A model generated the notes under the pieces. It saw nothing but the letters and a program-made list of their open reading frames with translations, ran no database searches and was not told the DNA's origin. Both the position numbers and the translations under genes were made by a program. A DNA stretch of 64,000 nucleotides, from sequence record PZ452579.1. The stretch is one strand, 5' to 3'. The first letter of the stretch is position 1. The number at the start of each line of letters is the position of its first letter. The DNA is from a phage. Below, piece by piece: positions 18,748 to 53,867 of this stretch.

Positions 18748-19116
18748 TTATGCAACTTTAATCCAATTGTCTAAATTTAAAACACCTTTGGCTTTCATTT
18801 TTTCGATCAGGTTATCTGCTGTAATGCGTCCATTTTGATACCATGTAACATCTTCAGAGTAACCAGTTTCTTCGTCAACATATGTTTCTGAACGAATTTT
18901 ACCGGTAATAATAGTTTTTAATTCGTATGTGTCACCTGTGAAAAAGTTTGCTAACACAATTTTCCAAGAGAAATCATTTGAAGGACCTTCAGGGGTCATA
19001 CAACCTACGAACTCAAATTGCTCTTTGTATAACATCCACTGGAATTCTTTAATTTCGATAGCTTTATAACCGTCGTGGTCTTTACATTTGATGTATGAGT
19101 TCAGATTGATTTTCAT
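18748..19116 (-). CDS. Hypothetical protein (30.x region)
   Basis: 122-aa ORF, GGAG RBS. Confidence 0.6.
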   Translation of the reverse strand: MKINLNSYIKCKDHDGYKAIEIKEFQWMLYKEQFEFVGCMTPEGPSNDFSWKIVLANFFTGDTYELKTIITGKIRSETYVDEETGYSEDVTWYQNGRITADNLIEKMKAKGVLNLDNWIKVA

Positions 19117-19156
19117 TTTGTTCTCCGGTTTGTTTTATCGATTAGGTGGTACAAGT

Positions 19157-19187
19157 CTATAGTAACACATCCTACAGGAGAGTAAAC
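19157..19187 (-). promoter_or_regulatory. T4-type early promoter (minus)
   Basis: + strand ctatagta...agtaaac. Confidence 0.45.
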
Positions 19188-19217
19188 ATCTTTTTAAACT
19201 TTTTCTGCCCTAAACGC

Positions 19218-19241
19218 ACAAAAGGGAGACCGAAGTCTCCC
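19218..19241 (-). terminator. UUCG-tetraloop hairpin terminator (minus)
   Basis: gggagac cgaa gtctccc; minus RNA hairpin followed by U-rich tract; identical stem-loop to the gene 32 terminator. Confidence 0.55.
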
Positions 19242-19246
19242 TAAAA

Positions 19247-19426
19247 TTATGCAACAACCTTTCCAAAACGAGAAGCATCATCTCGAAGAACTGCACGTGC
19301 TCTGCGCATGATCTTCTCAACTGTTTGATTAATACGAGAGTTCGACCCACGCTTGTATCCAGCGCGTTTAGAGGTACCATCAACTTTCTTTTCAACTGCT
19401 TTCTTTGCTTTAGCTTGTTTTGCCAT
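19247..19426 (-). CDS. Small basic protein (59 aa), 30.9 position; absent from the ORF track
   Basis: Manual translation MAKQAKAKKAVEKKVDGTSKRAGYKRGSNSRINQTVEKIMRRARAVLRDDASRFGKVVA; terminator hairpin follows. Confidence 0.55.
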   Translation of the reverse strand: MAKQAKAKKAVEKKVDGTSKRAGYKRGSNSRINQTVEKIMRRARAVLRDDASRFGKVVA

Positions 19427-19720
19427 TATAAATTCTCTTTAAATGAAAATGCAGGACTTATTGACATTGCCTGCGCAAGCCCTCAATGGGAACATAGGTT
19501 TTGGATATTTAACGACAGGATAACCATAAACCCGTCATCATACCAACCACGACTTAGACAGATAACCTTTTTCTGACGCGTGATAGTACAAAATACATTC
19601 AAGAGGTACACCGTAAAACTGCCGGGGTCTTAAAACTATAATGATTCGCAAATCATTAATCAGACAGTTCGACGGCTCCTCGATTTTCTAGCCGCACTAA
19701 GGTAGCGAATCACCTAAAAC

Positions 19721-19969
19721 TTATTTAAGGGTAATAACAAAATGACGTACTGCTTTACGAGCTGCAGAAGCCAAAGGCTTAGCATATTTCAGTTCATCTT
19801 TTGCTTCCAGTTCAGAGGCCAAAGCCGCCTGTACCGGGTTCAGATGTTTGAAATAACGCAGGATTTCCAGTGCTTCGGCTTCAACATCAATTGACGCGCC
19901 GTAGTTTTCATGACCGTTATTCCATGCGTTGCGTTGCAGTTCAAGAGCGTGTTGTAATTGTTTAATCAT
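19721..19969 (-). CDS. rIII: rIII lysis inhibition accessory protein
   Basis: 82 aa; near-identical to remembered T4 rIII (MIKQLQHALELQRNAWNNGHENYGASIDVEAEALEILRYFKHLNP...). Confidence 0.93.
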   Translation of the reverse strand: MIKQLQHALELQRNAWNNGHENYGASIDVEAEALEILRYFKHLNPVQAALASELEAKDELKYAKPLASAARKAVRHFVITLK

Positions 19970-20085
19970 TTTAAATTCTCAATTCGAGATAATATTTAGT
20001 AGCCACGTTCGTCTGAATTTCACCTTCTTTCGACAAGTCTCTCAGTTGTAGGCTACCGCTTAGAAGAGTGTTCTCTTCATATAGT

Positions 20086-20093
20086 TATTTATA
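20086..20093 (-). promoter_or_regulatory. T4 late promoter TATAAATA (minus) upstream of rIII
   Basis: tatttata on + strand ~117 nt upstream of rIII ATG. Confidence 0.4.
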
Positions 20094-20426
20094 TCACTTA
20101 TAAAGACACGGAATAGCTTTATAGTGGCATGTTACGAATTTCTGTTTAATTTCTTTAGGTTGTTTAAGTCCTAAAGCCACAAATGGATGTGGAACATTTC
20201 GAATTTGTCCAACTGGTAGTGGAGTCAAATCACCGACTTCAACAAAACCTTCAGGAACATCAGGACCTACAGAATGAACTACACATAGTTCAGGAACTTC
20301 ACCTTGAACACGTTTACCAATCACAAGTCCTGATTCGGTAACTTCTTCATCACCTGCTTGAGCGGGTTCAGAAACCAGAATGACATATTCACCAACAGCA
20401 CGAATTGGGAGTTGTACTTCAGACAT
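20094..20426 (-). CDS. 31: gp31 co-chaperonin (GroES analogue for capsid folding)
   Basis: 110 aa; matches T4 gp31 ([29 protein letters not shown]...KAIPCLYK). Confidence 0.95.
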
Positions 20427-53246: not shown

Positions 53247-53867
53247 TTAAAGATGAAGATACCACCCGTTGTAGTTGCTCTTGCGGACGATTTTCTTTAG
53301 GTCTTCATGGTCTCCCACGAACTTTATAGAATAAGAGAAGACGTCAGGTGAGGTTTCTTTGACATCTAATATAATAATGCAATCTGCGACTCGATGGTTC
53401 AAGAAGGGCCCTATATTGATTCCATTACCACCAGGATAATCACCACTGTATCCTGTGGTAACCGAAATCCATTTAGAATCTATCTGGTGCGTCTTGACTT
53501 CGACACGCAACCCGCAGTATTTAGGATGAGCTAACACGTCCCATGCATACGTGTACGGGTCTTCTACGTCTTCATTACCTTTATTAACATATCCGTCTAG
53601 CCAATTTGCTACTACATACTCTGCAAAGACTGCAACCTTACAACGTCGAACAACGTCTTCTTTTATTTGACCTGGATCTTGTTTCAACGAGTACCGAGCA
53701 GTATCAGCGATCTTAACCTTCATTTCGCTAGTCAAAAACTCATTCGACAGGATAAATGTCGGAAGACTCTTCAGCCTCAACAGCCCCAAGTTCGTCTTTA
53801 CCATAGATACCTCTGATGTGTAGTTCACCAAAATAAATGCGGTCACCTTCTTCAAGATATTCTGCAT
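53247..53867 (-). CDS. Possible endonuclease IV (denB) by position; start uncertain
   Basis: 206-aa ORF; the internal Met at 53804 would give 185 aa, the T4 DenB length; sequence not verified from memory. Confidence 0.4.
   Translation of the reverse strand: MQNILKKVTAFILVNYTSEVSMVKTNLGLLRLKSLPTFILSNEFLTSEMKVKIADTARYSLKQDPGQIKEDVVRRCKVAVFAEYVVANWLDGYVNKGNEDVEDPYTYAWDVLAHPKYCGLRVEVKTHQIDSKWISVTTGYSGDYPGGNGINIGPFLNHRVADCIIILDVKETSPDVFSYSIKFVGDHEDLKKIVRKSNYNGWYLHL

Follow-up and report, generated by a model that had tools for sequence, protein, structure and literature searches.

We read the 294-nt spacer between rIII and the gp30.9 gene of a T4-type, Mosigvirus-like phage, with moderate confidence, as a string of autonomous structured-RNA modules, transcribed with the cd-31-rIII-30.9 message and coding for no protein, in which one module, E5, would serve as a ToxI mimic. 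The spacer occupies positions 19427-19720 of the window (the whole 64-kb stretch of PZ452579.1 that was analysed), and both flanking genes, rIII (19721-19969) and the gp30.9 gene (19247-19426), lie on the minus strand. The corresponding interval in T4 is 130541-130784. Compensatory changes preserve the base pairs of modules B, D1 and E5, whose G·U pairs fit a sense RNA only. By its sequence, E5 corresponds to one ToxI-type antitoxin repeat, having a pseudoknot core and an A-rich tail as at the ToxN processing site of natural arrays, and comparison of related loci indicates that the modules have been shuffled, lost and swapped among phages. E5 may help the phage to blunt host defence.

The initial annotation had singled out an ORF-free region after rIII, which was confirmed: across the 294 nt, the longest ORFs on the transcribed strand have 42 aa (GTG start) and 37 aa (TTG start). 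Its remark that most gaps in the operon are below 60 bp holds for neighbouring gaps of 57 and 35 nt and fails for those of 124 nt (31–rIII), 130 nt (30.9–30.8) and 74 nt. The spacer was present in each of the rIII-carrying relatives examined (unannotated, 240-420 nt in T4 and relatives), and in none of them does it hold a conserved ORF. Its longest stop-free stretches vary among relatives, and 1-nt indels separate close relatives within blocks whose conservation is otherwise about 95%. Mean pairwise identity is 0.91-0.96 over 19611-19670 and 0.90-0.96 over 19431-19520, compared with 0.81-0.96 for rIII and 0.61-0.94 for 30.9; by this measure, the conservation of B and D1 is equal to or above that of the flanking genes. 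Although no lytic phages have been studied more closely than T4 and its relatives, sequence in this spacer proves to be more conserved than the neighbouring genes. No tRNA or tmRNA was found in the spacer with ARAGORN, and searches of the window region and seven related loci against Rfam 15 gave sub-threshold chance matches only (the top one scored 20 bits, where the gathering score is 382). Folded as a single sequence, the spacer gives unexceptional z-scores (minus strand, -0.98; plus strand, -1.52).

The hairpin that had been flagged in the spacer, a perfect 9-bp inverted repeat placed at 19643-19664, does exist, with a length of 8 bp and a position of 19639-19658. Its arms are TAATGATT (19639-19646) and AATCATTA (19651-19658), separated by a 4-nt loop; the extra flanking T/A pair is absent from the sequence, in which A19638 stands opposite A19659. 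A perfect 8-bp inverted repeat alone is unremarkable, as the 64-kb window has 30 of them with loops of 3-8 nt (9.0 ± 3.5 in block shuffles), and we take the flagged hairpin to be real because of its conservation and compensatory change in relatives. On the minus strand it forms helix P3 (UAAUGAUU-UGCG-AAUCAUUA) of module B, a 79-nt three-helix RNA domain at 19603..19681 that was defined by covariation and RNAalifold. The domain consists of P1 (GAGG/CCUC), P1b (GCCGU/ACGGU), P2 (GAACUGUC/GGCAGUUU) and the apical hairpin P3. Among 16 distinct sequences, 99.3% of the pair cells of B are paired, including 100% of those in P3, where the pairs vary as AU/UG/GC/GU (34-49), UA/CG (35-48) and UA/UG (39-44). 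Six pairs are compensatory, and both sides changed in 15 cells, compared with 3.1 ± 1.4 in shuffles, within a module whose variation is limited and in part stems from few lineages. RNAalifold independently returned the identical 25 pairs, and the invariant G·U pairs are compatible with a minus-strand RNA only. Of the options initially offered for the region, a small or structured RNA is therefore the one that gained support: the covariance and structure check proposed with it found base pairs kept by compensatory change, with RNAalifold in agreement for B, and on the transcribed strand the hairpin belongs, as one of the helices, to a domain supported by covariation. At least two further supported folds are present in the spacer. 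Four loci from a pattern scan for B (L051, L052, L054 and L055) were unrelated chance matches and were discarded.

The other options fared less well. The TATAAT hexamer reported beside the hairpin is there (19637-19642), on the plus, non-transcribed strand, and it overlaps the hairpin arm. A promoter and terminator scan found no promoter-like site in the spacer on either strand, and no terminator-like one; its single promoter-like site across 1.2 kb, where 2.7 are expected, is outside the spacer. A degenerate promoter or PeSL is thus unsupported, given the lack of a promoter-like site and a TATAAT on the wrong strand and within a hairpin arm. As a PeSL comprises an early sigma-70-type promoter and a stem-loop on the transcribed strand, it was rejected for lack of a promoter-like site in 19427-19720. 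An intrinsic terminator was rejected as well, as the scan returned no terminator-like site in 19000-20200 and the flagged hairpin, rich in A/U, has UAGUUUUAAG after it within a larger helix. A decayed gene found no support in the related loci, where 0/43 have a conserved ORF and 1-nt indels fall in conserved blocks; a gene that is conserved in homologous phages and only frameshifted here was looked for in the same 43 loci and was not seen. The ToxI-like unit at the interval's 5' end, the pseudoknot and the modular build had not been part of the initial annotation.

The solitary ToxI-like (‘pseudo-ToxI’) unit E5 is located at 19684..19719 on the minus strand (UUUU-AGGUGAUUCGCUACCUUAGUGCGGCUAGAAAA), begins 2 nt past the rIII stop codon and ends with an A-rich tail, GAAAAUC. 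By BLAST, it is 84% identical over 45 nt, with a 19-nt exact match, to an array of four 36-nt repeats on an IncX4 plasmid (NZ_CP068036.1), which is upstream of a ToxN gene (the toxin matches PF13958 with 146.5 bits). In other phages, the E5 variants have their matches in ToxI arrays on plasmids of Enterobacter (97% over 33 nt), Pectobacterium, Lelliottia, Hafnia, Klebsiella and Pseudomonas; three arrays inspected in sequence had a ToxN gene next to them. In an alignment of phage units and plasmid repeats (A6), stems S1 and S2 are 92.4% paired, compared with 26-57% for slid partners, and the covariation was matched by 0/500 shuffles. Compensatory changes include G10-C24 to A-U, C9-G25 to U-A or A-U, and G2-C15 to A-U, while T4-type copies break U4-A13 and T4's own copy has a weakened S1. 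ToxI residues that are conserved or contact ToxN have been reported, together with the cleavage motif AA|AU or GAA|AU (PMC8860590), and the window unit has most of these residues: A1, G5, A6, U7, U8, U12, G21, U22 and the GAA/AU site. Its loop L2 is 1-2 nt shorter than in plasmid repeats, with a single A replacing A19/A20, its 5' overhang is non-native (UUUU versus AUC(U/C)), it has no cleavage site at the usual distance, and its 3' tail is CUAGAAAAUC, compared with ACGAAAAUC or CUCGAAAAUC in natural arrays. One copy of E5 is present in the window and in every phage locus examined, with no ToxN ORF near it; RB69 lacks the unit through a clean indel of about 32 nt. E5 therefore has the repeat homology, the H-type pseudoknot core (including the U12·U22 position) and the A-rich tail with a cleavage motif that are expected of ToxI. 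A ToxIN locus, with at least about 1.9 tandem repeats running from promoter to terminator and then toxN, was not found around this one unit, and E5 qualifies by sequence only as a solitary phage pseudo-ToxI.

Compared with ToxI of the type III ToxIN systems of E. coli and P. atrosepticum (PMC8860590; PMC3401426), E5 shares the core AGGUGAUUCGCUACC..AGUGCGG, the pseudoknot stems and the GAAAAUC tail, but apart from the shorter L2 it differs in having neither a tandem array nor a promoter-array-terminator-toxN operon. The pseudo-ToxI of the Pectobacterium phage ΦTE (Blower et al, 2012; PMC3475682) is likewise intergenic, in a lytic myovirus, and without toxN. Both units resemble natural ToxI without being identical to it, and for both the expected effect would be RNA mimicry that neutralises ToxN. 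The ΦTE unit is made during infection and suppresses ToxN; it has 1.5 repeats, escape required expansion to 4.5-5.5, a single cloned pseudo-ToxI repeat failed to neutralise over-expressed ToxN, and ΦTE-F gained toxI through recombination with a plasmid (PMC3475682). Whereas ΦTE is rV5-like, the window is T4-type and has one full processed-frame unit with a non-native 5' side, which directly follows rIII, sits within a larger chain of RNA modules and is known here from sequence alone. T-even phages also have TifA (T4 gene 61.4), a protein inhibitor that traps ToxN on cellular RNA (PMC9391042; PMC10853763). TifA and, as a candidate, E5 are alike as anti-ToxIN counter-defences of T-even phages, but TifA is a protein whose gene lies at another place in the genome, and E5 is a putative RNA mimic; these two papers make no mention of a ToxI-like RNA in T-even phages. 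Plasmid-borne ToxIN restricts T4, T2 and T6, with RB69 less restricted, for which the published explanation is TifA (PMC9391042). We considered the presence of E5 as a cause of the lower sensitivity of RB69 and rejected it, as RB69 has no E5 and there is no correlation.

Module D1 (19488..19543, minus strand), identified by covariation and a covariance model, is an H-type pseudoknot with an A-rich third loop. Stem S1 pairs GACGGG (19531-19536) with CCUGUC (19514-19519) and S2 pairs GGUU (19522-19525) with AACC (19497-19500); the loop GUUAAAUAUCCAAAA is conserved, as is GUAUGAUG upstream of the fold. D1 was found in 43/43 related loci. In an alignment of 28 distinct sequences (A1), 81% of its cells are paired (28-50% with slid partners), and 56 cells show double changes, compared with 23.7 ± 3.7 in shuffles, none of which reached this value (0/500). 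Covariation is present in both stems, with several pair types in S2; in the subgroup of T4 and the window, S2 is apparently shifted to GGUU/AACC, a register read from the sequence of that subgroup alone. With the covariance model (R1), one copy is detected in the whole 64-kb window, at 71.7 bits. TenpI/CptI antitoxin RNAs combine an H-type pseudoknot with a conserved A-stretch (PMC12283969; PMC3401426), and D1 resembles them in size (about 50 nt, within a test range of about 40-57 nt), in its two-stemmed H-type pseudoknot and in a conserved run of A placed to contact stem 1. Unlike them, it has no tandem array, no cognate toxin and no sequence similarity to plasmid or E. coli loci, and the resemblance is architectural only, in a comparison that covered plasmids, E. 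coli genomes, ToxN-family loci and metagenomes. The preQ1-I riboswitch aptamer is also a small H-type pseudoknot, in which an A-rich tail ends in the 3' strand of stem 2. It was rejected for D1, with no Rfam match at E<=10 in the window region or at E<=1 in seven related loci; loop 3 of D1 is also about twice as long, and no link between T-even phages and preQ1 is known.

Modules also occur beyond the rIII context, B being present in A7_1, W70 and phi92. In A7_1 (Vequintavirinae), B and D1, with many compensatory changes, head a cluster of tRNA-Met and an rnaD-like gene, and in W70, B alone lies in the same operon as tRNA-Met and an rnaD-like RNA; in both, the modules are upstream of tRNA-type genes and there is no 30.9 gene. 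In phi92, a whole T4-type spacer lies within a tRNA cluster. Because they are present in the tRNA and stable-RNA clusters of unrelated phages, we regard B and D1 as autonomous, mobile modules that extend beyond a 30.9 leader. Module order relative to 30.9 varies, as D1 is found before or after a 145-nt element and E5 at several positions. Like T4 rnaC and rnaD, which are co-transcribed and processed with tRNAs, B and D1 would be phage non-coding RNAs; rnaC and rnaD have tRNA-like 3' parts, whereas the spacer modules have, by eye, no similarity to them in sequence or fold. Searching E. coli genomes with the whole spacer at E<=0.01 gave no counterpart of B, C, D1, D2, D3 or the 145-nt element, and 5,426 E. 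coli genomes had none of D1-D3 at E<=10. Plasmids, searched at E<=10 and also with a 2.8-kb concatenate of nine variant spacers at E<=1, gave ToxI matches only, and 80 ToxN-family loci from genomes had no D1 or B by nhmmer or blastn. A metagenome scan for tandem D1 cores yielded 44 loci, of which 0 were D1 by the covariance model; they are chance or coding repeats, the best of them a coding VKYPKPNP repeat. Apart from E5, then, neither the modules nor the 145-nt element had a counterpart in the bacteria and plasmids searched, and a decoy role for them could be proposed by analogy only.

Several other accounts of the spacer have to be weighed against this evidence. We judge it unlikely that the whole spacer is a cis-regulatory 5' leader of 30.9, acting on translation, mRNA decay or processing, for example if gp30.9 bound the pseudoknot in its own message. 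The layout would suit such a role, as D1, D2, a hairpin and an SD-proximal hairpin stand directly 5' of 30.9 in 43/43 T4-type loci, a possible SD-sequestering pairing is conserved in kind, and gp30.9 (phrog_1427, no known function) is strongly basic; however, A7_1 and W70 carry B or D1 without 30.9, the module order is variable, and E5 is homologous to a trans-acting antitoxin. It seems quite unlikely that the spacer is passive mRNA architecture, with protective or insulating hairpins and RNase sites between rIII and 30.9, and with E5 as a functionless relic of recombination with a toxIN plasmid. Plasmid recombination did give ΦTE-F its toxI (PMC3475682), a clean indel separates loci with E5 from those lacking it (RB69), the T4 copy looks degraded in S1, and D2-type hairpins often abut the rIII stop. 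Yet B and D1 are conserved at 0.9-0.96 in their loops as well as their stems, beyond the need of simple protective hairpins, and B evolves through compensatory change in a second phage family. The phage E5 variants, moreover, each match a different natural ToxI across core and tail, at up to 97%, which argues for repeated matching over a single decaying relic.

An element acting at the DNA level, be it a promoter cluster, a PeSL cassette, an origin of replication or a site of recombination, is very unlikely. The plus-strand TATAAT, an ‘ori type 2 repeat’ annotated near the 30.9 start in ATK47 and the status of the spacer as a module-exchange hotspot would fit it, but the spacer lacks any site resembling a promoter or terminator, and the opposite strand would have A·C mismatches wherever the RNA keeps an invariant G·U pair or switches between G·U and Watson-Crick pairing, which indicates a sense-strand RNA. 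Least credible is a decayed or very small coding gene, such as an ATGATG-started peptide overlapping D1, which we hold to be extremely improbable. A conserved AUGAUG before D1 opens an ORF of 10 aa in the window and 33 aa in T4, and small ORFs are annotated in the spacer in GenBank records including those of PTE-Eco05, HX01 and AR1; against this, the frame, length and sequence of the ORF differ in close relatives (10, 19, 33 and 34 aa) via 1-nt indels, substitutions track base pairs and not codon positions, and no ORF is common to the 43 loci. The small ORFs annotated in several GenBank records are probably spurious.

For the preferred reading, a chain of autonomous RNA modules with E5 as a ToxI mimic, we propose that the spacer RNA would be abundant during infection, assuming its expression and processing. 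In cells with a matching ToxIN (of the IncX4 or pPA21A type), ToxN would bind E5 and possibly trim it, so that E5 would replace the host ToxI lost by decay after host transcription shut-off, and abortive infection would be delayed or blunted, as with the ΦTE pseudo-ToxI. A single E5 copy may be a weak inhibitor, and may also be a seed that could be expanded under selection. Weighing against this reading are the repeat expansion that ΦTE required, the one unit per T4-type locus, the shortened L2 and altered 5' side of E5, the restriction of T4, T2 and T6 by ToxIN, the ordinary folding energies and the limited variation of B. By analogy, B and D1 most likely also act in trans, as decoys, antitoxin-like RNAs or stable RNAs, while D3 and the hairpins of the SD region would probably set only the translation and stability of 30.9. 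If E5 works, T-even phages would have an RNA counter-defence against type III toxin-antitoxin systems alongside the protein TifA, which could explain strain-specific ToxIN sensitivity and would offer a starting point for rapid escape through expansion of the repeat. A bolder proposal, which we consider doubtful, is that the spacer is an ‘RNA anti-defence island’, a cassette site at which small structured RNAs are exchanged among T4-like, rV5-like and phi92-like phages, where E5, D1, B and the 145-nt element (found in phages of the Klebsiella and Enterobacter type) would each imitate an antitoxin or act as a decoy towards an RNA-dependent immune system of the host, a different one in each case. 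This would make B, D1 and the 145-nt element novel RNA families with novel targets. B and D1 are in any case candidate new phage non-coding RNAs, as they are absent from Rfam and no published account of the spacer modules in T-even phages was found in the full-text literature searched (by sequences, T4 rIII/30.9 non-coding RNA and pseudo-ToxI).

The remaining structures, all on the minus strand, are shorter hairpins. Module C (CAGA-AAAAGGUUA-UCUG, 19559..19575) lies within a variable segment at about 19545-19590, which is missing from T4, where B and D1 adjoin each other, and from two other loci (L005 and L012) and replaced by the element of about 145 nt in three (L008, L017 and L019). Its stem changes from CAGA/UCUG in the window to CAGC/GCUG in two loci (L007 and L024), which is weak support from two variant sequences only. 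Module D2 (GUUCCC-AUUG-AGGGCUUG, 19476..19493) is a short G+C hairpin with conserved flanks. Almost every locus has it, in the form GU(A/U)CCC..GGGCUUG, with loops that vary, some extended stems (CCUCUUAGAGG and CCCUAUGGGG) and modest covariation; in some phages it is directly 3' of the rIII stop. Module D3 (GCAGG-CAAUGUCAAUAAGU-CCUGC, 19451..19474) was taken from the minimum-free-energy fold, and in distant loci its position is held by GGGAGC...GCUCCC hairpins of 15-80 nt. In the translation-initiation region of gp30.9 (AUUUUCAUUUAAAGAGAAUUUAUA-AUG, 19424..19450), pairing of UUUUC with GAGAA could cover the Shine-Dalgarno-like AAGAG, and distant phages have an analogous UCUCC-AAAAU-GGAAGA immediately 5' of the ATG. 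Downstream of gp30.9, an intrinsic-terminator-like hairpin (GGGAGAC-UUCG-GUCUCCC followed by UUUU, 19220..19241) accounts for the weak partial Rfam matches to the terminator parts of PhrS and BSR0709. Judging from its sequence, it would end the transcription unit containing the spacer, and a terminator is annotated at the same place in ATK47.

The window comes from a T4-type phage and shares 99% identity with the Mosigvirus Escherichia phages JM17 and mar005P1. Its minus strand carries cd, 31.1, 31, rIII (19721-19969), gp30.9 (19247-19426), 30.8 and onward, and the interval flagged in the initial annotation as ORF-free (19427-19720) is exactly the 294-nt rIII–30.9 spacer. As a terminator-like hairpin lies 3' of 30.9 (19241-19220, minus strand), the spacer sits within a transcription unit. 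It was found in 43/43 related loci that could be delimited, with lengths of 120-416 nt, and is matched by 774 GenBank phage records, including T4, T2, RB-type, Shigella, Yersinia and Salmonella phages; in T4, it spans 244 nt (130541-130784) and is not annotated. Across 17 T-even genomes, two blocks of the spacer (19611-19670, mean pairwise identity 0.91-0.96; 19431-19520, 0.90-0.96) are conserved at least as well as the flanking genes (rIII, 0.81-0.96; 30.9, 0.61-0.94). In alignments, the spacer consists of discrete modules whose presence, absence and order vary among phages. On the transcribed (minus) strand, 5' to 3', these are E5 (19719-19684), directly 3' of the rIII stop; B (19681-19603), which includes the flagged hairpin; C (about 19590-19545), which is variable, absent in T4 and replaced in other phages by a ~145-nt element; D1 (19543-19488), a pseudoknot; D2 (19493-19476), a short hairpin; D3 (19474-19451), a hairpin; and the 30.9 ribosome-binding region (19450-19424) at the 3' end of the spacer. 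No Rfam family matched any of the spacer modules.

When the spacer was compared to plasmids using BLAST, only positions 1-43 matched, on IncX4 plasmids. The match there is a tandem array of four 36-nt repeats, (TC)TAGGTGATTCGCTACCTTTAAGTGCGGGACGAAAA, followed by a terminator and then a gene for a ToxN toxin (PF13958, 146.5 bits), which makes it a classical type III ToxIN locus. The E5 unit of the window is AGGUGAUUCGCUACCUU-AGUGCGGCUAGAAAAUC; over its first 17 nt it agrees exactly with the repeat unit of P. atrosepticum pPA21A, where 13 repeats occur, and the two have the GAAAAUC tail in common. The E5 variants of further T4-type phages align with further natural ToxI arrays over the core as well as the tail (Enterobacter, 97% over 33 nt; also Lelliottia, Hafnia, Klebsiella, Pseudomonas and Pectobacterium), and a plasmid search with nine variant spacers matched no module besides E5. 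In a joint alignment of phage units and plasmid repeats, the ToxI pseudoknot stems were 92% paired, with compensatory changes. Most of the residues that are conserved or contact ToxN in the E. coli ToxIN structure (PMC8860590) are kept in the window's E5 (A1, G5, A6, U7, U8, U12, G21, U22 and the GAA/AU site). However, compared to plasmid ToxI repeats, loop L2 is 1-2 nt shorter and the 5' overhang is non-native. E5 was present as one copy in every phage locus examined. This single-copy unit has the sequence and fold of ToxI but neither the array nor the operon, and is therefore a solitary phage "pseudo-ToxI". One earlier example of this kind is on record, from the rV5-like phage ΦTE (PMC3475682). 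Within the searchable literature (subscription papers lay outside its scope, and absence of a report is unproven), we found no account of structured RNA between rIII and 30.9, nor of a ToxI-like unit in T-even phages. While a phage RNA antitoxin mimic is already known, here it is solitary and lies within a chain of undescribed structured-RNA modules.

The type Mosigvirus RB69 (L155:7344-7606, NC_004928.1 132343-132605) is missing E5 by a clean ~32-nt indel, so the pseudo-ToxI is polymorphic within Mosigvirus; outside the indel, the RB69 spacer is nearly identical to that of the window. A Clostridia MAG contig (CAMZNU010000035.1, L145:183-307) has two GGTGATTCGCTACCTT-like cores, 108 nt apart, upstream of a distant ToxN homologue, and the phage-type ToxI core is thus conserved far beyond Enterobacteria.

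The hairpin in module B had initially been annotated as a 9-bp perfect inverted repeat. The repeat does exist, but comprises 8 bp (TAATGATT/AATCATTA, 19639-19646 and 19651-19658) with a 4-nt loop. A single perfect 8-bp inverted repeat is unremarkable by itself; the 64-kb window has 30 with 3-8-nt loops, compared to 9.0 ± 3.5 in composition-matched shuffles (~3-fold). The window therefore carries many further hairpin-forming sites. Single-sequence folding of the spacer gave z-scores of -0.98 and -1.52, indicating no unusual stability. In the minimum-free-energy fold, the hairpin is nested in three more helices (GAGG/CCUC, GCCGU/ACGGU and GAACUGUC/GGCAGUUU) and is P3, the apical helix of module B. 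Taking the window's own fold as the starting structure, standard pairs filled 99.3% of pair cells across 16 distinct sequences (28-63% with the partners slid), and 6 pairs had two-sided changes (15 such cells versus 3.1 ± 1.4 in shuffles), with the variation stemming largely from a few lineages (L022/HX01 type and A7_1/W70). An independent RNAalifold run returned the same 25 pairs. Within P3, pair types were AU, UG, GC and GU at 34-49, UA and CG at 35-48, and UA and UG at 39-44. Two G·U pairs are invariant and others alternate with Watson-Crick pairs; as G·U pairs would be A·C mismatches on the opposite strand, the structure is that of the sense (minus-strand) RNA.

D1 was found in every related locus. 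Its crossing stems were 81% paired across 28 distinct sequences (28-50% when slid), with 56 double-change cells versus 23.7 ± 3.7 in shuffles (reached in 0/500). It is an H-type pseudoknot, with the general build reported for TenpI/CptI antitoxins. Stem 2 varies by phage (GUAG/CUAC, GUGAG/CUCAC, GUUGG/CCAAC, GAUGG/CCAUC, GAAAG/CUUUC) and seems to have shifted to GGUU/AACC in the near-identical T4/window subgroup, and the loops (GUU..., CGUUAAAUAUCCAAAAC) are the best-conserved parts. As a D1 covariance model identified one copy in the 64-kb window (71.7 bits; runner-up, 12 bits), D1 is not a dispersed regulatory motif.

The initial annotation had suggested a small RNA, a degenerate promoter or PeSL, or a decayed gene; its observation was borne out in part and its interpretation is partly supported, with the promoter, PeSL and decayed-gene options rejected. 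A site scan returned no promoter-like or terminator-like sites within the spacer, and the TATAAT sits on the non-transcribed strand, overlapping a hairpin arm. A conserved gene that is merely frameshifted in this genome was looked for in the 43 related loci. These have no spacer ORF in common, and close relatives show single-base indels within otherwise nearly identical blocks, which rules out a frameshifted gene. Several deposited genomes have small "hypothetical protein" ORFs annotated within the spacer, or 30.9 extended upstream into it (window 19483-19611, minus strand; equivalents in PQ306573 (L003:1784-1912), NC_018855 (L068:417-497), AP011113 (AR1_216) and FJ839692 (30.9 start)). The small ORFs are probably mis-annotations, as they are not conserved among relatives and overlap RNA modules.

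B and D1 could instead be merely a leader of 30.9, which their contexts in other phages speak against. In A7_1 (Vequintavirinae), B and D1 form a fused pair; identity is 80-86% and compensatory changes are numerous (GGGG/CCCC, GAUUGUC/GACAAUC, UAGUGAUU-UACG-GAUCACUA). The pair lies away from rIII and 30.9, heading a cluster of a tRNA-like sequence, tRNA-Met and an rnaD-like RNA. Its relative W70 has B and no D1, and in T4 B directly adjoins D1. In phi92 (Stephanstirmvirinae; L071:1469-1815, NC_023693.1 ~53493-53839), the full T4-type spacer and the last 29 rIII codons are found within its tRNA cluster, permuted so that the spacer precedes the rIII 3' end, with a direct repeat, TTTATTGGAGATT, on both flanks that overlaps the tRNA-Gln 5' end/acceptor stem. 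This insert looks as though a small fragment, circular or duplicated, had integrated by homology, and the annotated phi92 "rIII" CDS is a fusion artefact. B and D1 are therefore autonomous, mobile modules.

The non-coding operons of A7_1 (L069, OP795442.1; ~800-200, minus strand) and W70 (L073; 1370-1900) lie downstream of a TTGACA-17-TAAGAT promoter and comprise ~150 nt of unknown RNA, module B (in A7_1 also D1), the tRNA-like sequence (no ARAGORN call), tRNA-Met and the rnaD-like RNA, which is clearly homologous to the stable RNA rnaD of T4.

Beyond the observed anatomy, conservation, folds and ToxI homology, we infer a mode of action in which the spacer RNA would be part of the transcript that runs from cd to 30.9. 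Where the host has a ToxIN system that matches, ToxN could bind E5 and possibly trim it at the GAAAAU site; E5 would then stand in for host ToxI, which decays after host transcription has been shut off by the phage. For B and D1, analogy suggests that they may serve as decoys acting in trans or as stable RNAs. D3 and the SD region probably adjust how strongly 30.9 is expressed. Several points count against a strong E5 effect: ΦTE escape required an increase from 1.5 to 4.5-5.5 repeats, and one cloned repeat failed under over-expression (PMC3475682); S1 is degraded in T4's own E5; T4, T2 and T6 are restricted by plasmid-borne ToxIN (PMC9391042); and RB69, without E5, is less restricted, for which the published explanation is TifA (PMC9391042). 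No host counterparts of B, D1 or the remaining non-E5 modules were found in E. coli genomes, plasmids, 80 ToxN-family loci or a metagenome tandem-pattern scan. The outcome is a set of concrete RNA elements, open to testing, in the best-known phage family, with the functions proposed for B and D1 being candidates only.

The ~145-nt element (ACGGCAAGTGCATGC...GCTAACGGTGTGCAACAGATAAGAG) stands where the window has module C; it is found in the Klebsiella phage Marfa type (L037:1865-2015) and also in comparison loci L008, L017, L019, L023, L025, L027-L030, L032, L033, L035-L040 and L042. It is absent from this window, without Rfam or plasmid matches, and occurs once in each of 403 GenBank phage genomes (Klebsiella, Enterobacter, Escherichia, Yersinia, Aeromonas, Erwinia) at 80-100% identity, conserved far above the surrounding proteins; judged by eye, its stems seem to covary. 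The gene for gp30.9 (window 19247-19426, minus strand), a strongly basic 59-aa protein of phrog_1427 (unknown function) with no Pfam family, invariably lies directly 3' of the structured spacer in T4-type phages; that gp30.9 binds RNA is conceivable. At the D3 position, Klebsiella-/Enterobacter-type phages have a long GGGAGC...GCUCCC hairpin (L037:2057-2140; equivalents in L025, L027, L029, L030 and L032) enclosing repeated GAAAGAA and CGAAAG motifs (GNRA loops possible), followed by a conserved AUGUAUUUCUCCAAAAUGGAAGA just 5' of the 30.9 start.
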